Part shown: positions 2,067 through 24,000 of the stretch, piece after piece
How positions within the stretch are numbered: the stretch's first letter is position 1
Layout: every line of letters begins with the position of its first letter
Assembly: GCF_045039895.1 (NCBI RefSeq)
Contig: NZ_CP108580.1
Location: 6,765,953 to 6,789,952, forward strand
Direction of reading: 5' to 3'
Length of the DNA stretch: 24,000 nt
Source of the DNA: Streptomyces sp. NBC_01190
Lineage (GTDB): Bacteria > Actinomycetota > Actinomycetes > Streptomycetales > Streptomycetaceae
Program-made: the position numbers and the translations under genes
The notes under the pieces: generated by a model
Database searches by the model: none
What the model saw: only the letters and a program-made list of their open reading frames with translations
Told to the model about the DNA's origin: nothing

Positions 2067-2096
2067 CCGACCCCAACCCCACGCGAGGAACACATC

Positions 2097-3014: not shown

Positions 3015-3068
3015 CCAGCCGCCCGGATCAGTCGGCCGGGCCCTTCCCCGTGAGTGAGGCATTCCGCG

Positions 3069-4444: not shown

Positions 4445-4464
4445 CCGGAACCGGGGGAGCAGCC

Positions 4465-4965: not shown

Positions 4966-5167
4966 GAGCACCTGTTCAGTTGCTGCGTACTTCACTCGAC
5001 CGACCCTATGCCGACGCGATCCGAGAGCAGCGCAGGCTCCCCAACGGCACGCTGCACGCCCATCAGGGCCCCGCATGACGGCTGGTGGGCGGCGCCAGCC
5101 CGGCACAGGCGAGAACCCAACGACATACGCGGCGCCACCATGGCGCCCGCTTTCCGAAGGAGCGCCA

Positions 5168-6382: not shown

Positions 6383-6413
6383 GCACCCCGCTTCGTTGTG
6401 AAGACCTCGCTGA

Positions 6414-7574: not shown

Positions 7575-7578
7575 GTGG

Positions 7579-8763: not shown

Positions 8764-9305
8764 TGTGAGCGGAACCGGCCTTTCTTGATGGGCTGGGCGA
8801 AGAGTGCATCCCAACTGTCCGACCCCTTTTCAGGTCGGCGGGAAGGCGATATGCGTTCGCGGTACATACGCTGGCGAATGATGGTCGCCATCATCTCCGC
8901 TTCGCGTTCATCCGCGGTCGAGTAGCTCGTGCGCCCCGACATGCGCATCACCAGAGTCGGATCCACCCCGAGGGAATGCGCCGTGGAGGCGTCCACTTCC
9001 AGGCTCCCGGGGTGGTCGAGGAACACGTGCATCAGTTCGTGGGCGAGTATGTGCCGTTGATGGTGGACGGACGTCCCCTCCTCGTAGAAGAGGAGGTCGG
9101 CCTGTGGCGTCTCCAGGCGTATGCCGCAGGGGGCGTCGATTGCCCCGAGCGTGTTCAAGGGCTTCAAGAAGATGGGCTTCCCGCGAACTGCGGTTATCGC
9201 TTCACGCAGCTCCCTCGTAGTGAAGCGATACGGCAGGGACAAGCGGTCGACTTTCTGCTCACAGGATGTGCGCAGCAGATTGTCGTCGACCCAAGGCAAA
9301 GACAT
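8760..9305 (-). CDS. ImmA/IrrE-family (M78-like) zinc metallopeptidase, annotated in actinomycetes as a TA-system toxin component
   Basis: HExxH motif in HHQRHILAHELMHVFLDH. The preceding block GKPIFLKPL...LLFYEEGTS and the later YSTADEREAEMMATII are typical of this family. ATG at 9305 is preceded by GAGGGGGG. Confidence 0.8.
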   Translation of the reverse strand: MSLPWVDDNLLRTSCEQKVDRLSLPYRFTTRELREAITAVRGKPIFLKPLNTLGAIDAPCGIRLETPQADLLFYEEGTSVHHQRHILAHELMHVFLDHPGSLEVDASTAHSLGVDPTLVMRMSGRTSYSTADEREAEMMATIIRQRMYRERISPSRRPEKGSDSWDALFAQPIKKGRFRSQ

Positions 9306-11742: not shown

Positions 11743-12762
11743 GTGTCACGGATACGCCCCGTAAAGCCCGAGACCTGGACGAGCGAGACGCTCGCTGCGG
11801 TCAGCATCCCCGCCATGGTCACCTTCCTGGCCATGACCAACATGGCCGACGACCATGGCCGTCACCGCGACAACGCGGCAATCATTTTCGGGCTGATCTG
11901 GCCGCTGCGCGCCGAGCACAGCGCGGTCCACGTCGAGGAAGACCTCACCCAGCTCGAAGACGTCGGAGCGATCTGCCGGTACACCGGCTGCGACGGCAAG
12001 CGCTACTTCCACTACCCGACCTGGTTCAAGCACCAGAAGATCGACAAGCCCAGCGCGTCGCGGCTCCCCGCCTGCCCGAAGTGCGCTCCCGAGCGGTGCG
12101 GGGTCTGCAAGGGCCCGTGCGCCCAGCGCGCCGACGCCTCCCCGAAGGCTCCCGGAGGATTCGGGGAGGACTCTCCGAACCTTCCCGGAACCCTCGAACC
12201 GCCCGCGCGGCCCGCGCCGACCCCTCCCGCACCCACCCCGGACACCCCTACGCCCGCCCAGGACGCCCCCGGCGCCCCCGCCACCACCACCCAGGGTGCG
12301 GGTGACAAACCCGCAGGTCAGACGCGACTCGCCGAAACCTCTCCGAAGGCTCCCCGAAAGGTCGGGGAGGGCTCGGCGCCTGGATCTAGGATCTTGGATC
12401 CTGGATCTTTCTTCCCTACGGGGCGCGATGCGCCCAACGCGAGCAGCGTCTCGGCGAAGGAGCTGATCGGCGAGTACGTCGCCTCGTGCCGGGAGCGCCC
12501 GCCGGGCGATGTGATCGGCCACCTCGGGGGCGTCACCAAGAAGCTCCTCGCCGAGGGCATCGCGGTGGAGCACGTGCGGGCCGGGCTGCGGCGCTTCGGC
12601 GAGATCCAGGGGCACCCGTCGCGGCTGCCGAGCCTGGTCAACGACGCGATGAACGCACCCGCCGCCGGTTTGGCCGGTCCGGGATTCCGGCCTAACGTGC
12701 CCGCTCACAGGGCGTGGACCAACCCGGTCGACGCCGCCACCGCCTACGCCGAGGAGCTGTGA
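11743..12762 (+). CDS. Putative replication organiser/initiator-like protein (assigned by context)
   Basis: GTG at 11743. There is a structured N-terminal domain (AMVTFLAMTNMADDHGRHRDN...YFHYPTWFKHQKIDKPSASRLPACPKC), then a Pro/Ala-rich linker and a C-terminal helical domain. The stop overlaps the start of the DnaC/IstB-like ATPase (TGATG), the usual position for a helicase-loader partner. Function is inferred from position only. Confidence 0.45.
   Translation: MSRIRPVKPETWTSETLAAVSIPAMVTFLAMTNMADDHGRHRDNAAIIFGLIWPLRAEHSAVHVEEDLTQLEDVGAICRYTGCDGKRYFHYPTWFKHQKIDKPSASRLPACPKCAPERCGVCKGPCAQRADASPKAPGGFGEDSPNLPGTLEPPARPAPTPPAPTPDTPTPAQDAPGAPATTTQGAGDKPAGQTRLAETSPKAPRKVGEGSAPGSRILDPGSFFPTGRDAPNASSVSAKELIGEYVASCRERPPGDVIGHLGGVTKKLLAEGIAVEHVRAGLRRFGEIQGHPSRLPSLVNDAMNAPAAGLAGPGFRPNVPAHRAWTNPVDAATAYAEEL
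12137..12409. repeat. Cluster of inverted and direct repeats inside the replication-organiser gene
   Basis: There is a 10-bp perfect inverted repeat, CCTCCCCGAA (12137-12146) with TTCGGGGAGG (12160-12169). A related 8-bp inverted repeat is CTCCCCGA (12350-12357) with TCGGGGAG (12362-12369). Both sit in imperfect ~40-bp direct repeats encoding SPKAP..GE. They are followed by four tandem heptamers (T/A)GGATC(T/C) at 12381-12408. Confidence 0.6.
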
Positions 12763-13466
12763 TGCGCACCAAGACCCGCGAACCGCAGACCCTCGGCGGA
12801 TCCGGAACCCTGGAGCGGATGGCCCGGATCCTGGCCGCCCGGAACATCGACCCCGCAGCCGCCGCCGTGGCGGACGAGCCGGAGCCGTACTCGCCGCTGG
12901 ACGCGCTACGGGCCTCGATGCCGCCGCGCTACCGGGACGCGGTGGCCGACCACCCGCAGGTCCTGGCCTGGTGCCGGGAGGTCGCCGCGCAGGCGGTCGC
13001 GCCGGGCGTCGGTGCCCGTCGGCAGGTGTGCACCGGCCCCAGCCTGCTGATGGCGGGGGTGGTCGGCGCGGGCAAGACGCACCAGGCGTACGGCGCGGTC
13101 CGCGCGTTGGTCGGGGCGGGGGTCGGGGTGCGGTGGCGGGCGACGACGGCGGCCGACCTGTACGCCGAACTGCGGCCGAGGGCCGGGGTGGACAGCGAGC
13201 GGGAGCTGGCGGCGGTGGCCCGGGTGCCGCTGCTGATCCTGGACGACCTCGGCGCGGCGAAGGCGTCGGAGTGGACCGAGGAGATCACGTACCGGCTGGT
13301 CAACCGCCGGTACAACCACGAGCTTCCGACCCTGATCACCAGCAACCTGCGGATCGGGGACCTGCGGGCCTATGTCGGTGACCGCGTCGCCAGCAGGCTC
13401 ACTCAGATGACCACGCGGGTCGAGTTCGACCTGGTCGACCGTAGACGCACCCGCGCTGCCGCCTGA
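12762..13466 (+). CDS. DnaC/IstB-like AAA+ ATPase (helicase-loader type)
   Basis: Walker A GVVGAGKTH, Walker B LLILDDLG and sensor LITSN are present. ATG at 12762 overlaps the upstream TGA. Confidence 0.8.
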   Translation: MRTKTREPQTLGGSGTLERMARILAARNIDPAAAAVADEPEPYSPLDALRASMPPRYRDAVADHPQVLAWCREVAAQAVAPGVGARRQVCTGPSLLMAGVVGAGKTHQAYGAVRALVGAGVGVRWRATTAADLYAELRPRAGVDSERELAAVARVPLLILDDLGAAKASEWTEEITYRLVNRRYNHELPTLITSNLRIGDLRAYVGDRVASRLTQMTTRVEFDLVDRRRTRAAA

Positions 13467-13582
13467 CCTGCGGTCAGACGGTCCGGCGGGCCCGCCCCCA
13501 GCGCGCCGCCCGCACGAACTTCCCGACCAGGCACCTCCGCCGGCGCCGACTGCGCGCGGAGGGCGATCGGAGCACACCGCGC

Positions 13583-14149
13583 ATGCCCAGCACGACGAAC
13601 ACCCCTGCCCGACACCGCTCGCTGGGGGACCAGACCTGGCAGAACCAGGCGGTCTGCCAGAGCACCGATTACCACCGGGTCGACCCCGCAATTTTCTTCC
13701 CCTACCCCGAGGAGATGGACAAGATCCGCGCAGCCAAGGCCCTGTGCGCTCAGTGCCCCGTCCGCCAGACCTGTCTGGACGCAGCCCTGGAAAACGGCGA
13801 CACCCACGGCATCCGGGGCGGCCTGACCGGGGAGGAACGTGCCCCGATGCACACCCGGCTCCCCGCTCGCCTGGACTACTCCCGCGTCAACGCCGCCGTC
13901 GCCGGACGCGACATCCACCTCACCTCCGCCGAACGCCAGGCCGTCATCCACGCCGCCTACCGCCACGGCGTGCCCGCACACCGCCTGGCGTCGATCCTGA
14001 AGGTCGACGAGGAGACCGCGCAGAAGCGCTACCGCGAGATCCGCCGTGCGCTGCGCCACCGCGACGCGGAGCCCACCACACCCGCCAGCCCGCCGCCGGA
14101 GCAGGGCGGACAGCACCTGGGCCGCGACGACTTCGGGACGGCGGCGTGA
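13583..14149 (+). CDS. WhiB-like (Wbl) Fe-S protein with a C-terminal HTH-like extension
   Basis: Four Cys in Wbl spacing (C...CAQCPVRQTC) and a GIRGG turn (the GIWGG equivalent). The extra ~100 aa tail contains AERQAVIHAAYRHGVPAHRLASILKVDEETAQKRY, which looks like sigma region 4/LuxR. Confidence 0.75.
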   Translation: MPSTTNTPARHRSLGDQTWQNQAVCQSTDYHRVDPAIFFPYPEEMDKIRAAKALCAQCPVRQTCLDAALENGDTHGIRGGLTGEERAPMHTRLPARLDYSRVNAAVAGRDIHLTSAERQAVIHAAYRHGVPAHRLASILKVDEETAQKRYREIRRALRHRDAEPTTPASPPPEQGGQHLGRDDFGTAA

Positions 14150-15249
14150 GCACCGCCAGCGTGCCGGAGACGGTGCTCGTCACCGGCTGGGACCGCCTGG
14201 CCGTGATCGTCCTGGGCGGCGCCGGGTGCGCCCTGTCGGCCAGCGCCCTGATGCAGATGGCCATCGCCATCCACATCCGCCCCGCCCTGTGCTGGCTCTT
14301 CCCGCTGGTGGTCGACGGGTTCATCGCCTACGGCATCCGGGCGCTGCTGGTCCTGCGCACCGCCCCGCTGCGCGCCCGCCTGTACGTCTGGACGCTGGTG
14401 GGCACCGCGACCGGGGTCAGCGTCTGGGCCAATGCCCTGCACGCGGTCCGGCTCAACGAGACCGCCCCGGCCGGCGGACTGCAGCTCGGCGACACGGTGG
14501 TCGCCTACCTGTCCACGGTCGCCCCGCTCGCCCTGGCCGGAGCGGTCCACCTGTACATCCTCATCGCCCGGGGCCCGGACAACCACGCCGCCCGCACCGA
14601 CCGGACTGGCCGTCACGGTCAGGTCGGTCACCCCGGTCAGGCCGACCGATCCGGTCAGTCTGACCCCGCCAGGGGCATCGCGGTCACCGCGGCTGACCGG
14701 GCCGGTCAGAGGTCACCGCACGCCGGTCAGTCCGGTGCCGGTCAGCCGGTCACCGCGCCGACCGACCCGCCCTCGGCGGCCGGGAACCCGCCCACCCTGG
14801 TCACCCGGTCACTGACCGGGGCCGGTGACCCGGCGGGCGGCACCGGCTCGGTCAGCGGTCACCACGACACCCGCGTTCGACGGACGCAGGCCGCTGACCT
14901 GGGCGGTCAGCCGGACAGCGGCCCGGCGGTCAGTGACCGACCGGCCGCCACCGAGCCGGTCACCACCGGCCCGGTCAGCCACCCGCCGGTCACTGACCGG
15001 CCGGTTACTCCTGCGCCGGTCGGTGACCGCGAGCCCCGCAGAGCCGGTGACCGGCGCCCTGACCTGGACACCGAGGAGCTGCTGGAGATCGCCCGGTCAG
15101 CGGTCAGGGCCCAGGACAAGTTGACCCGGCAGGTGGTTGCCCAGGCCATCCGGGGTCAGCGGATCCCGCTGTCCAGCGACACGCTGACCGCCCTGATGGC
15201 CCAGCTCCGCGAACAGCGCGACGAGCCGGTCACCACCTCCCGCGACTGA
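14146..15249 (+). CDS. DUF2637-like membrane protein with a low-complexity middle region and a C-terminal helical domain
   Basis: GTG at 14146 overlaps the WhiB-like stop (GTGA). N-terminal TM helices (VIVLGGAGCALSASALMQMAIA, LFPLVVDGFIAYGIRALLVL, YVWTLVGTATGVSVWANALHAV) are as in DUF2637 proteins of actinobacterial plasmids and ICEs. The ORF-track start at 13744 is an Arg-rich over-extension. Confidence 0.65.
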   Translation: MSTASVPETVLVTGWDRLAVIVLGGAGCALSASALMQMAIAIHIRPALCWLFPLVVDGFIAYGIRALLVLRTAPLRARLYVWTLVGTATGVSVWANALHAVRLNETAPAGGLQLGDTVVAYLSTVAPLALAGAVHLYILIARGPDNHAARTDRTGRHGQVGHPGQADRSGQSDPARGIAVTAADRAGQRSPHAGQSGAGQPVTAPTDPPSAAGNPPTLVTRSLTGAGDPAGGTGSVSGHHDTRVRRTQAADLGGQPDSGPAVSDRPAATEPVTTGPVSHPPVTDRPVTPAPVGDREPRRAGDRRPDLDTEELLEIARSAVRAQDKLTRQVVAQAIRGQRIPLSSDTLTALMAQLREQRDEPVTTSRD

Positions 15250-15297
15250 CCGCACCGCGCGGGGGCGGGTGACCGGGCCGGACAGCCCGGCCGGTCA
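14617..15297. repeat. Dense array of GGTCA/TGACC motifs, often as CCGGTCA(G/C)
   Basis: Hand count gives 24 GGTCA and 14 TGACC in ~680 bp. This includes two identical 15-bp palindromes, CCGGTCACTGACCGG (14805-14819 and 14986-15000). The motif falls in all three codon phases of the host CDS. Confidence 0.8.
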
Positions 15298-15306
15298 CCC
15301 GCCCCC
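15261..15306 (+). terminator. Very stable GC-rich hairpin after the DUF2637 gene
   Basis: GGGGGCGGGTGACCGG (15261-15276) is perfectly complementary to CCGGTCACCCGCCCCC (15291-15306), and an inner CCGG/CCGG pairing is possible. It begins 12 nt after the stop at 15249. There is no U-tract, which is common in Streptomyces. It contains the GGTCA/TGACC motif. Confidence 0.6.
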
Positions 15307-15352
15307 GAAGTGCCACCTTCCGACTTCCTCCCACCGACTGGAGAGCACGACC

Positions 15353-15577
15353 ATGCGCACCAACCCTGCCGCCCCCGCCGAGGTGGAGACCTGGCTGGCC
15401 GTTCTGCACGAGCGCGGGCACCTCTACCGCGCCGAAACCGGACCCGACCGCACCTGGATCGTGCAGCGAGGCCGTCACAGCCGCCCGTGGACCCTGCACC
15501 ACCCGGTCCTGGCGATGGACTGGATCGAGGACGTCCTGCGCGACGTCCACCAGAGCGAAGCGGAGTCGGATCGGTGA
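15353..15577 (+). CDS. Hypothetical small protein (74 aa)
   Basis: ATG at 15353 lies 8 nt after GGAGAG. Codon bias is good (MRTNPAAPAEVETWLAVLHERGHLYRAE...). No family was recognised. Confidence 0.5.
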   Translation: MRTNPAAPAEVETWLAVLHERGHLYRAETGPDRTWIVQRGRHSRPWTLHHPVLAMDWIEDVLRDVHQSEAESDR

Positions 15578-15644
15578 CCGCCGACGACCCGGTGGCCGCC
15601 ACCCCTGACCAGCAGCGACAGGTCAACTCGGCTCCTGGCGGGTC

Positions 15645-15716
<72 letters not shown>

Positions 15717-15747
15717 AAGCAAGCCGCGAGGGCGTCACCCGGACGGG

Positions 15748-17514
15748 CTACCCGGGAGTCCGCTTGCTGTCACCCGCATGGTGCTGGCGGTGGCACTCGG
15801 TGTGTACCAGGCGGAGGTTGGTCCGTTGGTCCGTGCCGCCGTCTCTCCGGTAAACGAAGTGGTGCTTGTTGAGCATCTTCTTCGACGCCGCGAACCAGTT
15901 GATCCACTCGCGTGGGCTGTCCGGTTCGTATTCGGCTCCGTCGATCAGCGCCAGACCGCATAGAGGGCACAGCCCTTTCTGTACGGCTGCCAGGTACAAG
16001 CTGGTCCTGTCCATCGGCGGCGGCGTTTTCTGGCGGCGACGGCCATGCCAGTAACCGGTCAGGGCCGGATCGTCTGGCGACGAGGCCCCTTTGACCATGG
16101 TGTGTCTGGCATAACGGGTCCAGGCGAATTTAGGGAGGTAGGCGCCGGTATGCCGGACACCGAACACCCAGTAGTCCTGCCTGGACTTGTTGAACCTGCC
16201 GAAATAGTGGTTCTTGATCCACAGTCCCGAACGATTGTCGTGACCGCGTTTCGCCCACTTGTAGAGAAGCGTGAACATGTAGTGGTCCATCGAGCGAAAT
16301 GCCTGATAGGACGCCACACCCCGGTAGTACGCCGTCCAGCCCCGAACGATCGGGGTGAACTTCGCCACCACGGCCATGGAGTTCGCACCCCGCAAGCGGA
16401 GCATCTCCTCCTTCAGCCGCTTCCGGAGCTTGCTGCATGCTTCCCTGCTCGGCCTGATGACCAGCATTCCACCGTGCCGCTGCACGGTGAATCCCAGGAA
16501 GTCGAACCCTTCGTCGAGGTGCACGACACGGGTCTTCGCCTCGTTGAAGCGAAGACCCCTGGGAGCCAGCCAGGTCACCAGTTTCTCCTTGACCCGGTAC
16601 GCCTCTTCCCTGCTGTGGCACAGGGCCACGAAGTCGTCGGCATAGCGGATCAGCACGGGCGCCCCGATGGCGGTATGGCCTTCACGGCCTCTCCGTCCTT
16701 CGAAGCGGAATCCCGCGGCCTGTTCCATCCCGTGCAGCGCGATGTTCAGCAGCAGCGGACTGATCACGCCGCCCTGAGGAGTTCCCTCCCCGGTCGGAGC
16801 GAAACGCCCGCGTTCCATCACGCCGGCCCGCAGCCACGCGCCGATCAGGTCCCTGGCGGGGAACTGTCCGATCATGGCGGTCAGGTGGTCGTGACTGATG
16901 CGGTCGAACGCCCCTTCCAGGTCCGCGTCCAGCGCCCATCGGCGCTTGGCCAGCGGTCCCCGGGCCGTGACCCGGATCGCCGCTATCGCGTCCTGGCAGG
17001 AGCGGCCGGGCCGAAATCCATAGGACCTCGGCTCGAACCGCGCTTCCCACTCGGGCTCCAGGGCGTTCTTCACGCGTGCCTGGAGCACCCGGTCACGGAT
17101 GACCGGGATGCCGAGCGGGCGCTGTTTCCCGTTCGCTTTCGGGATGTACACCCGCTTGACCGGCCTGGCCGTCCACGGCACCGGCGGCCGATGGATCTCG
17201 GTCGCCAGCCTGGCCCTGCCCGCAGGGGTCAGGACCCGTTCGCCGTCGATGCCAGCGGTCTTGCGGCCACTGCTCTGCTGTGTCACCCGCTTCACACTGA
17301 CCAGCGTGTTGCTGCGGCTTTTCAGCATGAGCTTCTGCAAATTGCGGACGCTTTTCAGGTCCCCGTCCTTCGACGCCTTGAAGATCCGCTGCCTCAGCCG
17401 CCGTACGTTGTCCTCGCACCTGGCCCAGTCGATGCTGTGCCAGTCGAGTTTCCCGTCCTCCGGTCCGTTCACCTCGGGCGCGCGGGCAGTCGCTTCTGCC
17501 GCTGTGATGCTCAT
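15748..17514 (-). CDS. Group II intron reverse transcriptase/maturase with a C-terminal HNH endonuclease domain
   Basis: RT motifs include RPLGIPVIRDRVLQ, the FDRISH region and YADDFVALC (YADD). A maturase X domain (RGWTAYYR) is present. The C-terminal part carries CPLCG...HHFVYRRDGG...LRLVHTECHRQHH (HNH). ATG at 17514. Confidence 0.95.
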   Translation of the reverse strand: MSITAAEATARAPEVNGPEDGKLDWHSIDWARCEDNVRRLRQRIFKASKDGDLKSVRNLQKLMLKSRSNTLVSVKRVTQQSSGRKTAGIDGERVLTPAGRARLATEIHRPPVPWTARPVKRVYIPKANGKQRPLGIPVIRDRVLQARVKNALEPEWEARFEPRSYGFRPGRSCQDAIAAIRVTARGPLAKRRWALDADLEGAFDRISHDHLTAMIGQFPARDLIGAWLRAGVMERGRFAPTGEGTPQGGVISPLLLNIALHGMEQAAGFRFEGRRGREGHTAIGAPVLIRYADDFVALCHSREEAYRVKEKLVTWLAPRGLRFNEAKTRVVHLDEGFDFLGFTVQRHGGMLVIRPSREACSKLRKRLKEEMLRLRGANSMAVVAKFTPIVRGWTAYYRGVASYQAFRSMDHYMFTLLYKWAKRGHDNRSGLWIKNHYFGRFNKSRQDYWVFGVRHTGAYLPKFAWTRYARHTMVKGASSPDDPALTGYWHGRRRQKTPPPMDRTSLYLAAVQKGLCPLCGLALIDGAEYEPDSPREWINWFAASKKMLNKHHFVYRRDGGTDQRTNLRLVHTECHRQHHAGDSKRTPG

Positions 17515-18124
17515 GCACGCCTCCGGTGTCTAACTTGTCCTTCGGTTCTGGTGTCTTTGCGTTGGTGCTTCAAGGGCTCACCTGGTCCACGTGGGCTCCC
17601 TTTCGGGCCGGGCCACCAGGGCCCGTATCCGGCGGGTTATGCCGCGTGGCGCGTGGAGACGGCCACCTCGCGGTTTTCCCCTGGCCTTTCGGCCTGCCGG
17701 CATTGGCTTCTTGGACCATCCTGTTCCTGCCGGGGAGTTGGGCTCCCCTTACGGTCGGCTTACCGGGTTTCCCCGGACCCCGACAGGGTTTCCGTGTTCC
17801 GCACGCTGAAGATGCGGCTGGGGTGGGCGCCCCCTCTGTCCCGTGGCCGACGGTGTCCCACAACCGATGTTGCTTGCACCGGAAGCCGTCTGCGCCTCTC
17901 AACGCGGGCCAATCCCTGCCGACAACACGCCATCTACAGGGTTCACATAACGAGACATTGACCGGGGGTTCACACGAGTTCGCCCGTCCAGCCTTCCCCT
18001 CGCCTGTGGCTCCTCGACGGCCGAGAAACCCTTGGGCTTGAACGCTCAGCTCCACACCCTGCCGTTGCCAGCAACGCACGTGAGCGCGGGGACGGAATCG
18101 GGACACTAATCCGGAGGAATTGTC

Positions 18125-18781
18125 ATGCCTGAACCTCTCCACAAGACGGACCTCACTTCAGAACGTGCGGCCTCACGTCGCACAGCAAGTTGTCGCGGTC
18201 GACGGTCCTACGGCCCGTCGATCGCACTTGCCCCCGCCCAGGGGGGCGGGGGAAGTCCGGCTGGTCCCCGCGCGAGGGCGCACGGGGACCAGCCGGAGGT
18301 CCGGCACCAGGGGGCGCCGGTCGCGGGGGGACAAGCAGCCGATCGCGTGCCGCGCGAGCAGCCCAGCCCCAGCGCGCCCGCGTTCCCCGACCGCGCTCCG
18401 CGCCGTCGCTCCCGCAACCCGAGCCAGCGCACCCACAAGCTGACTACGCGCCTGTCCCTCGCCGAGAAGACCGAGATCAGCGCCGCCGCAGCGAAGCGCG
18501 CCGTCACCGTCGCGCGCTTTCTCGCCGCCGCCGCCCTGACCGCCGCCCGCGGTTCGCTGCCCGTGCAGAGCAACGAGCAGCTCGACGCCGCCATCGACGA
18601 GCTGGCCGCCCTGCGCACCGCCGTCTCCCGCGTCGGCAACAACATCAACCAGATCGCCTACGTCTACAACTCCGGCGGCCAGTCCCGCCCCGGCGAACTC
18701 GACCACGCACTCGGCGTGCTGACCCGGATCCTGGCCCGCGTCGATGACACGGCCGACACTCTCGCGCGCGGGCGGCTCTGA
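18125..18781 (+). CDS. mobC: MobC-family relaxosome accessory protein
   Basis: The C-terminal part RLSLAEKTEISAAAAKRAVTVARFLAAAAL...LRTAVSRVGNNINQIAYVYN matches the MobC (RHH plus GNNLNQIA) pattern. ATG at 18125 lies 7 nt after GGAGG (18113-18117). However, the first ~25 codons have poor GC3 and a GC hairpin lies at 18231-18252, so an in-frame GTG at 18347 is a plausible alternative start. Confidence 0.7.
   Translation: MPEPLHKTDLTSERAASRRTASCRGRRSYGPSIALAPAQGGGGSPAGPRARAHGDQPEVRHQGAPVAGGQAADRVPREQPSPSAPAFPDRAPRRRSRNPSQRTHKLTTRLSLAEKTEISAAAAKRAVTVARFLAAAALTAARGSLPVQSNEQLDAAIDELAALRTAVSRVGNNINQIAYVYNSGGQSRPGELDHALGVLTRILARVDDTADTLARGRL
18231..18252. other. 9-bp all-GC hairpin (CCCCCGCCC-AGGG-GGGCGGGGG) in the mobC 5' region
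   Basis: Arms at 18231-18239 and 18244-18252 are perfectly complementary with a 4-nt loop. It lies between the intron insertion point and the conserved part of mobC. Confidence 0.5.
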
Positions 18782-20535
18782 TGGTCCCCAAGATCCGGCG
18801 CGGCTCGCGCACCCACGGCGTGCTCGTCTACCTCTTCGGCCCCGGCAAGCGCGACGAGCACACCGACCCCCACCTCGTCGGCTCCTGGGACGGCTTCGCT
18901 CCCGACCCGGGCCGCGACACCAGCCCCGACCCCGACCCGAAGGCCACCCTCGCCCGCCTGGCCGCAGCCCTGGACCTGCGCGTCACGCAGGCCGGCGCCA
19001 GCGCACCAGCCCAGCACGTGTGGCACTGCTCGGTGCGCACCGACCCCGGCGACCGCATCCTGAGCGACGCCGAATGGAACACCGTCGCCCGCCGCCTCGT
19101 CCAGGCCATCGGCCTGGCACCCGACGGCGACCCGGACGGCTGCCGCTGGGTCGCTGTCCGCCACGCCGAGGACCACATCCACATCGTGGCCACCATGGTC
19201 CGGGGCGACCTTCGCCGCCCCCGCATGAACTACGACTTCAAAAAGGCCCAGGCCGAATGCCGCCGCATCGAGAAGGAGATGGGCCTGCGCCGGCTCAAGC
19301 CCGGTGACGGCACCGCAGCCAAAAACCCCACCAGCGCAGAGCGGTTCAAAGCCGAACGCACCGGCCGCACCGAAACTCCCCGCGAGACACTGCGCGAAGC
19401 CGTCCGCCAGGCCCTCGCCGGAGCCGCCACCGAGGAGGAGTTCTTCACCCGCCTCCGCGACAAGGGGGTGCGCGTTAAGCTGCGCGACGCACCCTCAGGA
19501 GACGTCATCGGCTACTCGGTCGCGCTGCCCGGCGACCGCAACCGCGACGGCGAACCGGTCTGGTTCCCCGGATCCACCCTCGCCCCCGACCTGTCCCTGC
19601 CCAAGATCCGCCGCCGCCTGGCCGACGCACCCGGCGACGATCCGGCAACACCGGGGGCCGGCACCGGCCGAACCGTTTGGTCGCCGCCCGCCCGGGGACG
19701 GCGCACCGCCACCGGGATCGCCGAACGCGCCGCCGTCATCCTGGACAGCGACGACGACGGTGCCGCCGCCCAACTCACCGGCATGGGCGAACTGCTCGAC
19801 GCCGTCGCCCAGACCTCCCCGGCCGCGACCCGCGCCGAGCTGGCCGCCGCAGCCCGCTCCTTCGAACGCGCCACCCGCAGCCACACCCGCGCGCAGCAAG
19901 CCGAAACCCGCGCCCTGCGCTCCGCCGCCCGCGGCATCATCCACGCCGGCGGGGCGCTCGGCCGGGGCGAGGACGGCGGCACCACCGCGATGCTGCTGTC
20001 CACTCTGGTCCTGGCCGCCATCGCCGCAGCCCGCTGGCACTCCGCCCGCGGCCACGCCCAGCAAGCCGAAGCCTCCCGCCAGACCGTCCAGCACCTACGC
20101 GCCGCCTACCGACAGGCCGCCGCCGCACCCATGCAGGCACTGCACGCCCAAGGCCGCGCCCTGCCCGAGGCCGAACGCCGCAGCCACGAGAGCACCATCC
20201 GGAAGGCACTGCCGCACCACCTCACCCACGCCGATACCGATACCCAGCACGACGCGCTGGCCGCCACCCTCGCCGAGGCAGAACAGGCAGGCCACGACCC
20301 CAAGACTCTTCTGCAGCGAGCCATCGACATGCGCGAACTCGACTCAGCTGAGGATGTGAACGACGTCCTGGTGTGGCGACTGCGCCGCCTCGCCGACCTC
20401 CCCGCCCACCCGGGCGACACCGCCCCATCCCGGAAGACCGGCACCGCCCGCACCGCGCCACCGGCTCCCCGGACCGGCGTCCACAGCGCGCCGCCCGCCG
20501 CACGGGACCCCCGCAACCGTCCGCCCCGCCGCTGA
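18781..20535 (+). CDS. Relaxase/mobilisation nuclease (MobA/VirD2-type) with a long Ala/Arg-rich C-terminal region
   Basis: N-terminal relaxase domain: GVLVYLFGPGK, HVWHCSVR and the histidine triad region VRHAEDHIHIVATMV. ATG at 18781 overlaps the mobC stop (TGATG). Confidence 0.9.
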   Translation: MVPKIRRGSRTHGVLVYLFGPGKRDEHTDPHLVGSWDGFAPDPGRDTSPDPDPKATLARLAAALDLRVTQAGASAPAQHVWHCSVRTDPGDRILSDAEWNTVARRLVQAIGLAPDGDPDGCRWVAVRHAEDHIHIVATMVRGDLRRPRMNYDFKKAQAECRRIEKEMGLRRLKPGDGTAAKNPTSAERFKAERTGRTETPRETLREAVRQALAGAATEEEFFTRLRDKGVRVKLRDAPSGDVIGYSVALPGDRNRDGEPVWFPGSTLAPDLSLPKIRRRLADAPGDDPATPGAGTGRTVWSPPARGRRTATGIAERAAVILDSDDDGAAAQLTGMGELLDAVAQTSPAATRAELAAAARSFERATRSHTRAQQAETRALRSAARGIIHAGGALGRGEDGGTTAMLLSTLVLAAIAAARWHSARGHAQQAEASRQTVQHLRAAYRQAAAAPMQALHAQGRALPEAERRSHESTIRKALPHHLTHADTDTQHDALAATLAEAEQAGHDPKTLLQRAIDMRELDSAEDVNDVLVWRLRRLADLPAHPGDTAPSRKTGTARTAPPAPRTGVHSAPPAARDPRNRPPRR

Positions 20536-20540
20536 ACATC

Positions 20541-20573
20541 GGTCCGGCAGGCCGGCGCTCGGCCTGCCGGACC
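20541..20573 (+). terminator. Hairpin after the relaxase gene
   Basis: GGTCCGGCAGGCCG (20541-20554) and CGGCCTGCCGGACC (20560-20573) form a perfect 14-bp stem with a 5-nt loop. It begins 6 nt after the stop at 20535. Confidence 0.6.
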
Positions 20574-20610
20574 GGTCGAAGTCTCTGGACAACCGGCCCC
20601 ACCTGCTGTT

Positions 20611-21045
20611 ATGGATGAACAGACAGGCCTGGAGATGGAGATGACGCTCGTGCCCAGAACGACCGACCACCCCATAGAGGCACCCACCGCTCCGCCTGCC
20701 GCCCCCGTAGACAGCGACCCGCTGCTTCAACTGCGGTACGCGCCCCAGCCTCCCAGTGGTCCCCACGCCTTCCACTACATCCGCCACCCCCAAGAACTGG
20801 CCCTGCGCGGGATTCCAGTGATGTGCACGGCCTGCCGAGCCCGCCGGGACTGGCTCCTGATCAACCAGGGCCGCAACGTCTGGATCCACTGCCGCTGCAA
20901 CAACCAGTGGCACGAACCCGAGATCACCCGCGCCGCCTTCCAGGCCCTGACCCGCCTCCCGGACACCACCACATACGCCAGCGTGGCCGAGGGCGTAGCC
21001 GCCATGGGTTTCGACGGGAGCTTCGCCGGCATCTACCTGGAATAG
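20611..21045 (+). CDS. Hypothetical protein with a Cys/His cluster (possible zinc ribbon)
   Basis: Codon bias is consistent. The cluster is CTACRARRDW...WIHCRCNNQWHE. The start is uncertain (ATG at 20611, 20635 or 20641). A terminator hairpin follows. Confidence 0.5.
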   Translation: MDEQTGLEMEMTLVPRTTDHPIEAPTAPPAAPVDSDPLLQLRYAPQPPSGPHAFHYIRHPQELALRGIPVMCTACRARRDWLLINQGRNVWIHCRCNNQWHEPEITRAAFQALTRLPDTTTYASVAEGVAAMGFDGSFAGIYLE

Positions 21046-21071
21046 CCGGGCGGGGAAGCTGGCAACGCCGA

Positions 21072-21100
21072 GGAGCGCCACCGGGTTCCGGTGGCGCTCC
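21072..21100 (+). terminator. Perfect 13-bp hairpin
   Basis: GGAGCGCCACCGG-GTT-CCGGTGGCGCTCC (21072-21100) lies 27 nt after the stop at 21045 and is followed by the T-containing GTCGTTGTG. Confidence 0.65.
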
Positions 21101-21998
21101 GTCGTTGTGCGGTGGTCAGCCGCGGTTGCTGTGTTTGGGAAGCTGACCCCGGTAGTCGCAGCCCGGACAGGTGTCCTCGCCTTCGATGTGGCCTCCGTAC
21201 CAGCCGTGAACAGCGGCGTGGAGGACCGCGCGCCCGTGGGAGAGGCCCGGCGGGACCGAACAGACTCACCTGCGCCCGGGTCCGTCGCGGGTTCAGGAAC
21301 CTGCGGGCGAAGACCGGCACATCAGCCGGTGCACCGAAACCCACCCGCCGGGCCCCGGACGACCGCCCGGCTCGAAGAACCGGCGGCCCACCACCCGCTG
21401 TGAGGTCCGACGCGTCCTCGCCACCGGCGAGGCATACAGCCGACCCGCTCGCCACAAGACAGGCAGCAACCCGCGTCGCGGCGGTCGATCTTCCACCCAA
21501 ACTCCCCAACACGGACCTGACGATGTTAAATAGCGGCACGGTGAGTGCAAGAAGCAGAAGCGGTCCGACTGGGGCATTCCAAAGTGGATCGTCCTGTTGG
21601 CGACACCGTAGGGCTGGCGCACCAGCTCCTCACCATGGAAGGCGGAATGCTCTGCGGGCGCCTGGACGTGTCGATCAACACTGATCCACGAGATGCCCGG
21701 GTCGCTGCGGCGGTGACAGTGACGGAACTTGCGGCGCGACTTCCACGACACCCGACGTCAGGGTGAGGTGACCGGGGCCCCAGCAGCAGCGGCAGGCACT
21801 GCCCGCGCGCCTCGTAAGCCTCGGCAGCTCCTCGGGAAGGAAGTCCGCCTGCAGGAAGACCGGCAACTCTCCCGCTGTGCCGACGGCCAGTACCAGCGGC
21901 CTGCTCCGCGAGGCTGGCTGCTGAAGCTAGTCAGTTGGTGCTGTCCCAACAGGACAGTCTGACCCCCGCGGACGAGCCCGACAGCAGCGTTCGTTCGC

Positions 21999-22907
21999 TC
22001 AAGGGTGCTTCCACAGCCGGATCGTCTTGTCTTTGCTGCCGCTGGCCAGGATCTTGCCATCGGGACTGAACACCAGGCAGAACACAGGTTCGTTGTGTCC
22101 TTTGAGGGTAGTGGTGAGGGTCGGCGAACCGGTCTTCGCGGAGACGTCCCACAGCCGGATCGTCTCATCGCCGCTGCCGCTGGCCAGGGTGTTGGCGTCG
22201 GGACTGAACGCCACCGAATTCACCGGGCCGGTGTGACCGGTGAGGATGGCGGTGCTGGTTTTGGTCGCTACGTCCCACAACCGAACAGTTCTATCTACAC
22301 TGCCGCTGGCCAGGGTTTTGCCGTCGGGGCTGAACACCACCGCGATCACACCGTCGTTGTGTCCTTTGAGGGTGGTGGTGAGGGTCGGCGGACCGGTCTT
22401 CGCGGCGACGTCCCACAGCCGAACAGTTTTGTCGTAGTGGGCGCTGGCCAGGGTTTTGCCGTCGGGGCTGAACACCACCGCGACCAAATGGTCGTTGTGT
22501 CCTTTGAGGGTGGTGGTGAGGGTCGGCGGACCGGTCTTCGCGGCGACGTCCCACAGCCGGATAGTGTCGTCGAAGCCGGCGCTGGCCAGGGTTTTGCCGT
22601 CGGGACTGAACGCCACCGACTCCACCGCGTCGGTGTGGCCAGTGAGGATGGCGGTGCCGGTCGTGGTGGCCACGTCCCACAGCCGGATCGTCTTATCGTC
22701 GCTGCCGCTGGCGAGGGTGTTCCCGTCGGGACTGAACGCCACCGAATTCACGTGGTGGGTGTGGCCGGTGAGGATGGCGGTGCCGGTCGTGGTGGCCACG
22801 TCCCACAGCCGGATTGTCTTGTCATCGCCGGCGCTGGCGAGGGTGTTGCCGTCGGGACTGAACGCCACCGACTCCACCGCGTCGGTGTGGCCAGTGATGG
22901 TGTCCAG
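21999..22907 (-). repeat. Seven tandem WD40-encoding DNA repeats (~126-141 bp) with long identical stretches
   Basis: Blocks such as GTCGTTGTGTCCTTTGAGGGTGGTGGTGAGGGTCGGCGGACCGGTCTTCGCGGCGACGTCCCACAGCCG and GGTGAGGATGGCGGTGCCGGTCGTGGTGGCCACGTCCCACAGCCGGAT each occur twice verbatim. Differences cluster in a few codons per repeat. Confidence 0.85.
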
Positions 22908-23879
22908 CAGGCGAGGGTCCCGGTGATGGCCGTTGCCCACAATCTTTTCGATGAGGAGGGCCGTGCCGGAAACGCCGGTCAAGAGGCTGAGAAAGACGTA
23001 TCGGCGACGCAGGTTGAGTACAGGCAGCACTGGGGTCGTAGGGGGAGGTGTGTTCCGGTCCTCCGGAGTCTGCCATCCGCGCCGGGGTGGGAATGGCGTC
23101 GTGGGTTCGATGGGCGCGAAGGCGTTGCGGGCCAGGATGAAGCGGTCTGCTTCGTGCCGGATGGACCGGGTGGGTTCCGGATGACGGTCGCGGGCCAGTG
23201 CATCGGCGGCGTGGGTATAGACCACGCCCAGCGGCAGTCCCTGGGGATAGTCGGGCAGGCCCTGCTCAACGACGTCGGCCAGATACTTGGTGAAGAAGGT
23301 CTGCGGGTTGGCGGTGAGCGAATCGGCCTCAAACCCGGCGGTGCGGTACGCGCCGCTGGCTGCCAGCGTGACCGCGCCGGTCCCGAGCGTCGTGGTGATC
23401 ACATCGGCAAGGACGGGCCCGAGGGTATTTTCGGGGTGAGTGGCACGCCCAGCGAAGCAGCAATCCAGGATTACTATCTTGGTCTGTGCGTCGCACTCGC
23501 GCATCGCGGTGCGGACATCGGAAAATGGCAGCCCAATCGTCATGCGCCGCGCTCCCTCCGCAGGCGAATCCCCAAGCGCCAGGCACAGTTCGTCCTGAAC
23601 CAGCTGGCCGTGCCCGACAAAGTAGAACAAGGCGACATCGGTGACATCCTCGAACCACTCCATCAGCTGGTCGGGCAAGCGGCCGCGCCGACGGGCATTG
23701 GGCTCCACCGTCACGCGCTGCTGCGGCCAATCGCACAATGGGCCGGTCAGCAGCCTCGTCATCCGCTTCAGGCTGTTGCCCGCCGCCGGCCGTAGAGGGC
23801 GCAGGTAGGTGTAGTCCGATATGCCGATGAGTACCGCTCGAGAGCGCGAGTAGTCGCGCAACGGGGCACGGTCACTCAT
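21999..23879 (-). CDS. Caspase-like (peptidase C14) protease fused through a predicted TM helix to a 7-bladed WD40 propeller
   Basis: Caspase catalytic dyad context: FYFVGHG (His) and IVILDCCFAG (Cys). After a Pro-rich linker comes a hydrophobic segment, YVFLSLLTGVSGTALLI (~22950-23000). Seven WD repeats follow (GH..V.SVAFSPDG.TLASGS.D.TIRLWDV). ATG at 23879 overlaps the end of the upstream gene (ATGAGTGA). Confidence 0.9.
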   Translation of the reverse strand: MSDRAPLRDYSRSRAVLIGISDYTYLRPLRPAAGNSLKRMTRLLTGPLCDWPQQRVTVEPNARRRGRLPDQLMEWFEDVTDVALFYFVGHGQLVQDELCLALGDSPAEGARRMTIGLPFSDVRTAMRECDAQTKIVILDCCFAGRATHPENTLGPVLADVITTTLGTGAVTLAASGAYRTAGFEADSLTANPQTFFTKYLADVVEQGLPDYPQGLPLGVVYTHAADALARDRHPEPTRSIRHEADRFILARNAFAPIEPTTPFPPRRGWQTPEDRNTPPPTTPVLPVLNLRRRYVFLSLLTGVSGTALLIEKIVGNGHHRDPRLLDTITGHTDAVESVAFSPDGNTLASAGDDKTIRLWDVATTTGTAILTGHTHHVNSVAFSPDGNTLASGSDDKTIRLWDVATTTGTAILTGHTDAVESVAFSPDGKTLASAGFDDTIRLWDVAAKTGPPTLTTTLKGHNDHLVAVVFSPDGKTLASAHYDKTVRLWDVAAKTGPPTLTTTLKGHNDGVIAVVFSPDGKTLASGSVDRTVRLWDVATKTSTAILTGHTGPVNSVAFSPDANTLASGSGDETIRLWDVSAKTGSPTLTTTLKGHNEPVFCLVFSPDGKILASGSKDKTIRLWKHP

Positions 23880-24000
23880 CGAGCAGTCGCTCCAGTAGCG
23901 GGAGGATCTCCTCGACATTGGTCGCGTCCAGCACGAACCGCTGCCCCCGTATGGTCGTCTCGACCCGGATACCCGAGCGCCGCGAGCGGATGAAGTCCGG
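23872..24000 (-). CDS. C-terminal fragment of an upstream gene, EACC1-like (effector-associated constant component)
   Basis: The frame is open to the window edge: PDFIRSRRSGIRVETTIRGQRFVLDATNVEEILPLLERLLDE*. Its stop at 23872-23874 overlaps the caspase-WD40 start by 8 nt. The tail resembles the C-terminus of EACC1 proteins as I remember them (...V.IERDG..V.L......E.IV.AL). Only 42 aa are visible. Confidence 0.4.
   Translation of the reverse strand, partial: PDFIRSRRSGIRVETTIRGQRFVLDATNVEEILPLLERLLDE

Follow-up and report, generated by a model that had tools for sequence, protein, structure and literature searches.

A two-gene EACC1-caspase module with a WD40 propeller and a candidate transmembrane segment in Streptomyces sp. 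NBC_01190

Introduction

At one edge of a 24,000-nucleotide stretch of the Streptomyces sp. NBC_01190 genome (hereafter the window), the gene for a caspase-like protein with a WD40 propeller overlaps the end of a small upstream gene. Is this pair the visible end of a larger NTP-dependent conflict system or a complete system of its own, and which of its two products senses and which kills?

As described by Kaur et al. (2020; PMC7159879), the EACC1 system combines a constant caspase with about 50 alternative C-terminal domains, has transmembrane (TM) helices in at least 33% of the EACC1-associated caspases, and is strongly biased towards multicellular bacteria, which account for 650 of the 671 organisms that carry it (Table 1 of that paper). 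In their model EACC1 acts as a membrane sensor, and the caspase processes itself and thereby deploys the variable domain. For a pair from Ktedonobacter, a preprint reports that EACC1 is cleaved in a caspase-dependent manner, with the cleavage site at Asp49, that the C-terminal fragment is toxic, that liposome leakage is caused by cleaved EACC1 only, and that toxicity depends on EACC1 and on the catalytic Cys (bioRxiv 10.1101/2025.11.14.688446). The preprint also describes fusions of EACC1-associated proteases to DnaK-like and EccC-like domains, and suggests roles beyond phage defence.

Results

The caspase-WD40 gene and its overlap with EACC1

Two in-frame ATGs lie inside a minus-strand open reading frame (ORF) at 21999-23918. 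We favour the ATG at 23879 (23877-23879), which gives a product of 626 aa, because the same 8-nt overlap with the upstream gene recurs in 56 of 80 related loci, a survey set drawn from different actinobacterial species; the start giving 639 aa was dropped in its favour. Codon-position GC in the frame of the 626-aa gene is 0.61/0.54/0.81. Since coding-type codon-position GC is confined to this minus-strand frame, we read a plus-strand ORF of 596 aa (22005-23795) as a shadow cast by the true gene in high-GC DNA. The gene is intact and, as the original prediction had it, its product joins a caspase-like domain via a Pro-rich linker and a single (marginally) hydrophobic segment to seven WD40 repeats (Table 1). 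The only plasmid match that megablast returned for 21000-24000 was a 230-bp transposase fragment. Look-ups of identical proteins gave no match to either the 626-aa or the 639-aa product, and scanning genome contigs with the single protein gave no relative.

Table 1. Features of the EACC1-caspase locus (positions in the window)
Feature	Position	Strand	Evidence
3' end of EACC1 gene, last 42 codons + TGA	23872..24000	-	translation, Pfam PF19953, syntenic-EACC1 HMM, identity to L001
8-nt overlap ATGAGTGA, EACC1 stop / caspase start	23872..23879	-	sequence; same in L001-L005 and in 56/80 loci
Complete caspase / linker / hydrophobic segment / WD40 gene, 626 aa	21999..23879	-	ORF list, codon-position GC, domain matches
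Caspase-like domain (clan CD, C14), 'EACC1-associated type', residues 13-253	23121..23843	-	NF047832, Pfam, AF2, Foldseek
Predicted catalytic His90 codon (FYFVGHG)	23610..23612	-	invariant in 72 homologues
Cys140-Cys141 codons (ILDCCFAG)	23457..23462	-	both invariant in 72 homologues
Pro-rich linker ending in LNLRRR, residues 254-293	23001..23120	-	sequence; AF2 pLDDT 24-48
Marginally hydrophobic segment YVFLSLLTGVSGTALLIEKIVG, residues 294-315, candidate single TM helix	22935..23000	-	KD19, Hessa scale, relatives
Seven-repeat WD40 beta-propeller, residues 322-626	22002..22916	-	Pfam WD40, AF2 strands, repeat dissection
Tandem DNA repeats, period 126/138, encoding WD40 units	22129..22902	.	TRF, 74-79% matches
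NikA/MobC + relaxase	18110-20535		

The upstream minus-strand frame reads ...PDFIRSRRSGIRVETTIRGQRFVLDATNVEEILPLLERLLDE* and continues past the window edge at 24000; 42 aa of EACC1 are visible, and the remaining ~70 codons lie beyond that position. The tail matches positions 65-106 of the 107-position Pfam EACC1 model (PF19953) with E=0.0023, and its 18.4 bits, obtained from 42 aa, fall below a gathering score of 23.6 that is the cut-off for a full domain. Against an HMM built from 71 EACC1 ORFs of related loci it scores 52.2 bits (positions 73-114 of 114), and it shares 76% identity with the C-terminal end of the syntenic, Pfam-annotated EACC1 in one of them (L001). The expectation of an EACC1-like upstream tail thus holds over the visible residues. 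The overlap was also read correctly: the EACC1 TGA (23872-23874) and the caspase ATG both lie within ATGAGTGA, an arrangement that probably couples the translation of the two genes. In the EACC1 proteins of the relatives, a conserved acidic residue in GELGALD stands just before the hydrophobic core, a position that from the sequence appears compatible with the reported cleavage site at Asp49 (bioRxiv 10.1101/2025.11.14.688446).

The caspase domain

Residues 13-230 match positions 1-210 of the 211-position NCBIfam model NF047832 ('caspase, EACC1-associated type') with 158.4 bits, above its cut-off of 140 bits, and Pfam Peptidase_C14 (PF00656) is matched with E=1.5e-6. The AF2 model of the domain (pLDDT 92.1) was matched by Foldseek to Arabidopsis metacaspase 9 (AtMC9; E=1.1e-10), MALT1, caspase-9 and legumain, and as modelled it has the caspase/hemoglobinase fold of clan CD. 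Neither the caspase domain by itself nor a profile of 21 sequences gave a meaningful match when solved structures were searched by sequence. The motifs of the dyad, G-H-G and D-x-C-x-x-G, are present as G89-H90-G91 and D139-C140-C141-F-A-G144. His90, Cys140 and Cys141 are invariant in an alignment of 72 homologues, and the intact His/Cys dyad of the original prediction (H90/C141) therefore survives a proper alignment. On the model of the metacaspase motif D-x-C-H-S-G, we predict Cys141 to be the nucleophile. Residues 143-165, a loop that follows the catalytic Cys, are modelled with low confidence, in which they resemble the inter-subunit linker of caspases.

The WD40 propeller

Pfam WD40 matches seven stretches of the C-terminal region (E=1e-94) and dissection of the repeats gives seven GH...WD units. 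The propeller is modelled confidently by AF2, with four-stranded blades (strands 348-624, pLDDT mostly 80-96), and its last blade is probably closed by the N-terminal strand LLDTIT. Among themselves, the first six units are 70-90% identical in DNA and 58-88% in protein. Differences between the WD40 units cluster at unit positions 3-8 and 21-25. These positions belong to the loop that follows GH and to the turn that precedes the conserved Asp, and so to the top face of the propeller.

The hydrophobic segment

A Pro-rich linker, which is probably disordered, separates the caspase domain from the hydrophobic segment. The Kyte-Doolittle 19-residue mean (KD19) of segment 294-315 is 1.57; only 17 uncharged residues are followed by Glu-Lys, and the Hessa-scale sum is +0.7 over the 17-residue core and +4.8 over 19 residues. 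The flanks carry three Lys/Arg on the N-terminal and two on the C-terminal side. In the full-length AF2 model no helix or other secondary structure was found in the segment (pLDDT 24-35) or in the linker, and the model gives no support for or against a transmembrane or buried helix.

In 13 of 19 WD40-bearing relatives a hydrophobic segment occupies the corresponding place, directly behind a Pro-rich linker and an Arg cluster. The majority of these segments are strongly hydrophobic (KD19 up to 2.46), and that of the present protein is the weakest (1.57 versus 1.62-2.46). Across 40 homologues with a single segment, Lys/Arg average 4.05 on the N-terminal versus 1.2 on the C-terminal side, the former exceeding the latter in 34. 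These family-wide flanking charges favour a caspase inside and a propeller outside, the protein's own segment being borderline. The earlier argument from LNLRRRY for the same topology is thus weak in the protein's own sequence, and it is the charge pattern of the family that supports it. WD40-bearing relatives with similar propellers and no hydrophobic segment also exist (L033, L057, L084 and L086), so the propeller need not be extracellular to function. An RR pair stands ahead of most hydrophobic segments in the family; because Arg is the default basic residue in high-GC actinobacteria, it does not discriminate Tat from Sec export.

Related loci and neighbourhoods

EACC1 is encoded directly upstream in 75 of the 80 related loci. 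Hydrophobic segments occur in 36, and the combination of a hydrophobic segment with WD40 in 13; with TM helices also reported for at least 33% of EACC1-associated caspases (PMC7159879), the arrangement of caspase, hydrophobic segment and WD40 is not unusual, contrary to what had been supposed. After the caspase, the homologues carry WD40, HATPase_c, cyclophilin, Sel1, kinase or multi-TM regions, or no domain, and identity to the closest species-level relative is 68% for the caspase versus 54% for WD40. This pattern of a constant caspase and a variable C-terminus fits the EACC1-caspase family.

Five homologous neighbourhoods are annotated (L001-L005), and they have no conserved neighbour except EACC1. 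An nSTAND1/AAA_16 gene is nearby in L001 only, two genes upstream, with a NACHT gene downstream; in L005 (Nonomuraea) the module adjoins an integrase, NikA and a relaxase. Downstream of the pair, the remaining 22 kb of the window yielded no EAD or NTPase gene. On this locus PADLOC returned only two models, a generic 'caspase' and a repeat, and none for EACC1.

The NikA/MobC-relaxase mobilisation module in the window is ~78% identical to one on a Streptomyces plasmid. The EACC1-caspase pair adjoins this relaxase module, which contains an intron and a transposase remnant.

Discussion

The pair is best read as a self-contained EACC1-caspase two-gene system (System 4 of Kaur et al. 2020) rather than as a piece of a STAND/EAD NTPase system. 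It is an ordinary further copy of an already known two-gene suicide module, with nothing essential new. The original prediction of an EACC1 and caspase pair of the conflict or cell-death type is supported by the NF047832 match, the EACC1 tail and the synteny. The same prediction regarded EACC1 mainly as the partner of EAD proteins in NTPase systems; in the 2020 description it instead defines a two-gene system of its own (PMC7159879). The roles within the pair also have to be reversed. The caspase-WD40 protein had been called an effector/sensor, but in one homologous pair the caspase was shown to cleave EACC1, whose C-terminal fragment then makes a membrane pore (Evans et al. 2025). On that precedent EACC1 is taken as the effector, with the caspase fusion as sensor and activator.

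We consider it likely that the complete module is a protease-gated cell-death system of the abortive-infection type, situated next to a mobilisation module. Gene anatomy, family membership, conserved synteny, fold and dyad are established for the present locus. In this proposal EACC1 (~114 aa) would be an autoinhibited and harmless monomer, and the 8-nt overlap would let it be translated together with the caspase fusion. We infer that the WD40 propeller, with seven near-identical units that vary at few top-face positions, may be the ligand-recognition part, and that ligand binding would gather the caspase domains and switch them on, as in other induced-proximity caspases; the trigger and the topology are likewise our suggestions. 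The caspase (His90/Cys141) would then cut EACC1 mid-protein, probably after the conserved acidic residue of GELGALD, and the freed C-terminal fragment, which includes the visible stretch, would oligomerise into a membrane pore that kills or arrests the cell. The cleavage and pore steps come from the literature on one homologue: such systems had been thought mostly untested, but the EACC1-caspase module has been tested for one pair (bioRxiv 10.1101/2025.11.14.688446). Against the proposal, this biochemistry is reported in a preprint on a single distant homologue that senses through a STAND ATPase (Avs12) and not through WD40, and the predicted cleavage site and Gly-rich hydrophobic core of the present EACC1 fall beyond the window.

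In a rival reading, the pair would be the downstream end of an NTP-dependent, EAD-coupled system with its STAND NTPase and effectors beyond 24000, EACC1 would be a membrane sensor or adaptor, and the caspase would free a WD40 effector by autoproteolysis. Membrane sensing and auto-processing are what Kaur et al. proposed (PMC7159879), nSTAND1 NTPases are 'sometimes' present in EACC1 systems, L001 has its nSTAND1/AAA_16 and NACHT genes, and loop 143-165 is poorly modelled, like a caspase inter-subunit linker. We nevertheless find this very unlikely, given that the same authors class the system as a two-gene one (PMC7159879), that EACC1 was both substrate and toxin in one pair (bioRxiv 10.1101/2025.11.14.688446), that the propeller has no obvious toxic activity, and that neither the rest of the window (EAD or NTPase) nor four of the five annotated neighbourhoods (STAND NTPase) provide the missing components. 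The STAND NTPase once expected upstream need not be there, since a single neighbourhood of the five has such a gene and nothing but EACC1 is conserved. Improbable, too, is a module that does not act on phage and instead serves cell death in development or social life (the dismantling of hyphae, or conflict with kin or competitors), or acts as an addiction module that stabilises its mobile element. The predominance of multicellular organisms among those with EACC1 systems (650 of 671; PMC7159879), the DnaK-like and EccC-like fusions (bioRxiv 10.1101/2025.11.14.688446) and the adjoining relaxase module with its intron and transposase remnant would suit such roles. However, a tail-connector protein of a phage is what sets off the one homologue tested so far (bioRxiv 10.1101/2025.11.14.688446), no antitoxin-like partner is present, and WD40 repeats that are internally conserved and variable at the surface fit the recognition of rapidly evolving non-self ligands.

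If segment 294-315 spans the membrane, the caspase would be cytoplasmic and the propeller outside, in a single-pass receptor. The same module could also operate with caspase and propeller both in the cytoplasm, the segment acting as a peripheral anchor, docking element or linker and the sensor seeing intracellular phage or stress proteins, as in the characterised Avs-type relatives. This is consistent with the KD19 of 1.57, the 17 uncharged residues ahead of Glu-Lys, the Hessa sums (+0.7 over 17 and +4.8 over 19 residues), the lack of an AF2 helix and the flanking charges of 3 versus 2, and in its propeller the segment-less L057 (45% identity) resembles the present protein more than several segment-bearing relatives do. 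All characterised bacterial WD40-bearing sensors that we know of are cytoplasmic, which counts in the same direction. We still judge the cytoplasmic arrangement somewhat unlikely, because the segment is found at the same place in 13 of 19 WD40-bearing relatives, mostly in a strong form (KD19 up to 2.46), because the charge bias is strong family-wide, and because a strong segment is mostly missing there from those homologues whose C-termini are typical cytoplasmic domains (HATPase_c, cyclophilin, Sel1, kinase).

We tentatively raise the possibility that the propeller does lie outside the membrane, as part of a single-pass 'death receptor' whose outer, fast-evolving WD40 surface binds an external ligand, clusters, activates the cytoplasmic caspase and licenses the EACC1 pore. 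Its ligand would be a phage particle or tail protein met during adsorption, a protein secreted by a competitor, or damage to the wall, and sensing from the outside would precede genome entry. Outside-in sensing was not found as shown for any experimentally characterised protease-effector module in the literature that we consulted. In actinobacterial Rieske proteins, a folded domain is exported via an internal Tat-type signal-anchor. As pure speculation, RRRYVFLSLLTGVSGTALLIEK (a twin-arginine, a weakly hydrophobic Gly/Ser/Thr-rich stretch and then a basic residue) could be such an internal signal-anchor, exporting the folded propeller.

The system itself is already known, from a computational description in 2020, a dedicated NCBI annotation model and the biochemistry of a homologue in 2025. 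The main value of the locus is its correct annotation, with EACC1 as a latent pore toxin and the caspase-WD40 protein as sensor and activator. Of wider interest are the loci that recurrently place a hydrophobic segment between protease and WD40 propeller, a subclass of 13 among the 80 species-level loci. If such propellers face outward, they would be bacterial receptor-like suicide switches that read extracellular cues, and this locus, or the relatives L037 and L041 with their stronger segments, would be a simple two-gene system in which to test the idea.

Comparison with known systems

Like the system of Kaur et al. (2020), the locus has a small 5' EACC1 gene overlapping a 3' gene for a constant caspase with a variable C-terminus, in an actinobacterial host. 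It also shares the hydrophobic segment after the caspase (at least 33% of members) and a superstructure-forming repeat domain in the variable position. The combination of a single hydrophobic segment with seven WD40 repeats, found here in 13 of 80 loci, is not singled out in the text of that paper that we consulted, and the functional model proposed there, with EACC1 as sensor and the C-terminal domain as effector, is superseded by experiment. EACC1-KrAvs12 of Ktedonobacter racemifer is likewise protease-gated, in that cleavage removes an autoinhibitory N-terminal part of EACC1 and the C-terminal fragment forms a pore, but there sensing falls to Avs12, a STAND ATPase that works in the cytoplasm and detects the tail-connector proteins of phages (bioRxiv 10.1101/2025.11.14.688446). 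The protein described here has, in contrast, a WD40 propeller behind a possible transmembrane segment and no NTPase.

More distantly, bacterial gasdermin and protease pairs, and caspase/gasdermin pyroptosis in eukaryotes, share the principle of a protease, of the caspase family or another, that is often fused to a repeat or NLR-type sensor and cleaves an autoinhibited neighbour to open membrane pores. EACC1 (~114 aa) is, however, to our knowledge unrelated in sequence to gasdermins. In NLR-type sensors of fungi and bacteria, such as the HET-E/NWD family, tandem near-identical WD40 units with few variable surface positions are associated with fast-evolving recognition domains. By analogy, the present WD40 units, near-identical in DNA and variable at few predicted surface positions, may play a similar role, although here no NACHT/NB-ARC NTPase is present and the propeller is joined to a caspase via a linker and a hydrophobic segment.

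The EACC1-caspase gene pair

The ORF listing gives a single long minus-strand frame (21999-23918) with two in-frame ATGs, and the ATG at 23879 yields the 626-aa caspase-WD40 protein. A second minus-strand frame enters from the window edge at 24000, reads PDFIRSRRSGIRVETTIRGQRFVLDATNVEEILPLLERLLDE in translation and ends at a TGA (23872-23874). Because ATGAGTGA contains both this upstream stop and the downstream ATG, the EACC1-like ORF overlaps the caspase gene by 8 nt, as in the original prediction. The caspase-WD40 frame has a codon-position GC of 0.61/0.54/0.81. Given that coding-type codon-position GC is found only on the minus strand, this frame is the coding one, and an antisense plus-strand ORF (22005-23795, 596 aa) was rejected as a high-GC shadow frame.

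The 42 visible residues of the upstream ORF match positions 65-106 of 107 in Pfam EACC1 (E=0.0023, 18.4 bits), under the gathering score, as expected for a domain fragment. In every case where caspase homologues were traced to their contigs, a PF19953 EACC1 gene of 111-115 aa was directly upstream, and at the traced loci L001, L002/L003, L004, L005 and P0099 it overlaps the caspase gene by 8 nt, as here. The tail shares 76% identity with the C-terminal end of the L001 EACC1, and an alignment of four sequences shows no substitution in 31 of 42 columns. An HMM of 71 EACC1 ORFs collected at related loci matches the tail at positions 73-114 of 114 (52.2 bits). Given these Pfam, synteny, identity and HMM results, it is very unlikely, judging from the visible residues, that the upstream ORF is anything other than the EACC1-like gene proposed.

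The Pfam Peptidase_C14 match of the caspase domain is weak (E=1.5e-6). Against NF047832 ('caspase, EACC1-associated type'), a curated NCBIfam model with a cut-off of 140 bits, the 626-aa protein scores 158.4 bits. Aligned with 71 homologues, it shows no variation at G89-H90 and D139-C140-C141...G144; the His/Cys dyad (H90 and the predicted nucleophile C141) is intact, as claimed. Sequence searches of solved structures gave no meaningful match. An AlphaFold2 (AF2) model of residues 1-262 (pLDDT 92.1) matches Arabidopsis metacaspase 9 (E=1.1e-10), MALT1, caspase-9 and legumain, and these fold matches and the invariant residues bear out both the dyad and a fold of clan CD. What was shown at this locus itself is thus the family, the conserved gene order, the fold and the catalytic residues.

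The loop directly past the catalytic Cys (residues 143-165; window ~23385-23453, minus strand) has low confidence in both AF2 runs. It could be a candidate autoprocessing site, since caspases have their inter-subunit linker at this position.

Features of the window and of the 626-aa protein
Feature	Position	Strand	Remarks
DUF2797-like	2067-3014		
SAM methyltransferase	3054-3908		
Cytochrome P450	6414-7742	-	
MAB_1171c-family putative transporter	7579-8829	-	with DUF6545
Mobilisation block of plasmid type	~11750-21045	+	~78% identical to Streptomyces angustmyceticus plasmid p1 (NZ_CP104318.1)
Hypothetical protein	within ~11750-21045	+	gene of the block
IstB-like ATPase	12696-13466	+	
WhiB	13445-14149	+	
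Group II intron	15642-17529	-	RT/maturase/HNH ORF and Rfam Intron_gpII
NikA/MobC	18110-18781	+	
Relaxase	18781-20535	+	
Small ORF	20611-21045	+	
Caspase domain	residues 13-253		Pfam Peptidase_C14 and NCBIfam NF047832
Linker	residues 254-293		Pro-rich, LNLRRR at its end
Hydrophobic segment YVFLSLLTGVSGTALLIEKIVG	residues 294-315		sole hydrophobic stretch outside folded domains
WD40 propeller	residues 322-626		seven units, Pfam E=1e-94

Related loci and the WD40 propeller

A profile scan with one genome per species gave 271 loci encoding a caspase relative, and features were counted by script in 80 of them, all actinobacterial. An EACC1-like ORF lies immediately upstream in 75 of the 80, and the overlap is exactly 8 nt in 56. 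At least one hydrophobic segment past the caspase (19-residue Kyte-Doolittle mean >= 1.6) is present at 36 loci, WD40 repeats at 19 and both at 13, so the architecture is not unusual, contrary to the original reading. The layout of caspase, single segment and seven WD40 units recurs in Streptomyces natalensis (L007), Nonomuraea (L037), Amycolatopsis thermalba (L051) and others. At species level, the nearest relative is L007 (identity 68% in the caspase, 54% across the propeller). WD40 members without a hydrophobic segment include L033, L057, L084 and L086.

The seven blades predicted for the propeller were recovered as Pfam units and are confident in the full-length AF2 model. Tandem DNA repeats at 22129-22902 (period 126/138, matches 74-79%) encode WD40 units, and units 1-6 share 58-88% protein and 70-90% DNA identity. 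Differences between units concentrate at unit positions 3-8 (directly past GH) and 21-25 (next to and at the B-C turn Asp, which is conserved); in WD40 structures generally, such positions are on the top, ligand-binding face. Such a distribution would be expected if a recognition domain were evolving fast via repeat shuffling, and the near-identical DNA repeats suggest repeat recombination with surface diversification.

Whether it faces outward is the single interesting point about the propeller of this recurrent segment-WD40 subclass. The topology first proposed, with the protease in the cytoplasm and the propeller outside, is plausible because of a charge bias in the family, the recurrent position of the segment, and homologues with cytoplasmic domains that lack a strong one. 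Among 40 homologues with a single segment, the mean K/R number in the 15-residue flank is 4.05 on the caspase side versus 1.2 on the other, and the N-terminal count is the higher in 34. Of 19 WD40-bearing relatives, 13 have a segment at the equivalent place, usually a strongly hydrophobic one. Homologues ending in typical cytoplasmic domains (HATPase_c, cyclophilin, Sel1, kinase) mostly have no strong segment there. The need for the caspase to encounter EACC1 in the cytoplasm also counts in favor of an external propeller.

Against this, residues 294-315 are marginal (best 19-residue Kyte-Doolittle mean 1.57, only 17 uncharged residues) and form the weakest segment of the set, with a flanking charge balance of 3 versus 2. 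Propellers closely related to that of the 626-aa protein also occur without any hydrophobic segment. The full-length AF2 model is neutral on a membrane helix, given that linker and segment have a pLDDT of 24-35 and no helix. We regard the external propeller as plausible but not established, at somewhat less than an even chance.

Genomic context

The EACC1-caspase pair is cargo adjoining a mobilisation module. The counterpart block on p1 encodes a hypothetical protein, an ATP-binding protein, WhiB, DUF2637, MobC and a relaxase, whereas the cargo past the relaxase and small gene is different on p1. The match to p1 is split in two pieces (67% of the query covered), and thus the group II intron appears to interrupt the block. 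Its ORF (15748-17529) has Pfam RVT_1, RVT_N, GIIM and HNH domains, and the Rfam match (15642-15718, 67.3 bits) lies just downstream. A 230-bp stretch (~21226-21458), located past the relaxase block and before the caspase gene, shares 83% identity with genes on several Streptomyces plasmids annotated 'NF041680 family putative transposase'. It is probably what remains of a transposase gene, and a search there gave no intact ORF that matches a family. Farther away, a small metabolic or transport cluster (2067-8829) has no relation to the pair.

NTPase partners, originally expected beyond the window, are probably not part of the system: neither a STAND NTPase nor an EAD gene turned up elsewhere in the window, and a STAND NTPase is near the pair in only one of five annotated relatives. 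Caspase relatives occur in 39 plasmid records, mostly actinomycete, and the Nonomuraea locus L005 likewise adjoins integrase, NikA and relaxase genes. The L001 locus (7207-8454, 13511-15580) encodes, besides an integrase, proteins of the nSTAND1/AAA_16 and NACHT types, with UPF0102 gene fragments on both flanks. At L005 (15831-17575) there are integrase, relaxase and PAPS_reduct/DpdA genes, and a helicase-family gene (6239 residues) extends past the locus end. Both are EACC1-caspase-WD40 loci and appear to lie in defense or mobile islands.

Proposed mechanism and comparison with known systems

According to Kaur et al. 2020 (PMC7159879), EACC1 is the 5' gene, and the caspase encoded by the 3' gene can carry any of up to 50 alternative domains at its C-terminus. 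TM helices are present in at least 33% of these caspases, and multicellular bacteria are strongly overrepresented among the hosts of the system (650 of 671 organisms). These authors proposed EACC1 as a membrane sensor, with the C-terminal domain released by the caspase. A pair from Ktedonobacter, with the caspase fused to Avs12, was tested by Evans et al. in November 2025 (bioRxiv 10.1101/2025.11.14.688446). There, toxicity is triggered by a phage tail-connector protein and depends on EACC1 as well as on the catalytic Cys of the caspase. Cleavage of EACC1 by the protease, putatively at Asp49, yields an N-terminal fragment of 5.7 kDa and a C-terminal one of 7.1 kDa; only the latter is toxic, and only cleaved EACC1 causes liposome leakage. 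EACC1 is therefore the effector (a latent pore-former) in that pair, and the caspase fusion is sensor and activator.

In the consensus of the 71 related EACC1 sequences, a highly conserved acidic residue in GELGALD, just before a Gly-rich hydrophobic core and in a region beyond our window, is plausibly the counterpart of Asp49. The EACC1 and caspase-WD40 genes here most likely form a complete module. We infer that a ligand would be recognized by the propeller and that the caspase domains would then be activated, probably through induced proximity. By analogy with the one characterized homologue, the caspase would cut EACC1 mid-protein, and the freed C-terminal part, including the 42 residues in the window, would make a pore.

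The available parts of the two papers do not specifically describe a TM-WD40 subclass. The original reading is right about the family, but the roles it assumed are outdated, given that EACC1 is the effector in the Ktedonobacter homologue. The pair belongs to an already known, curated and recently characterized kind of system.
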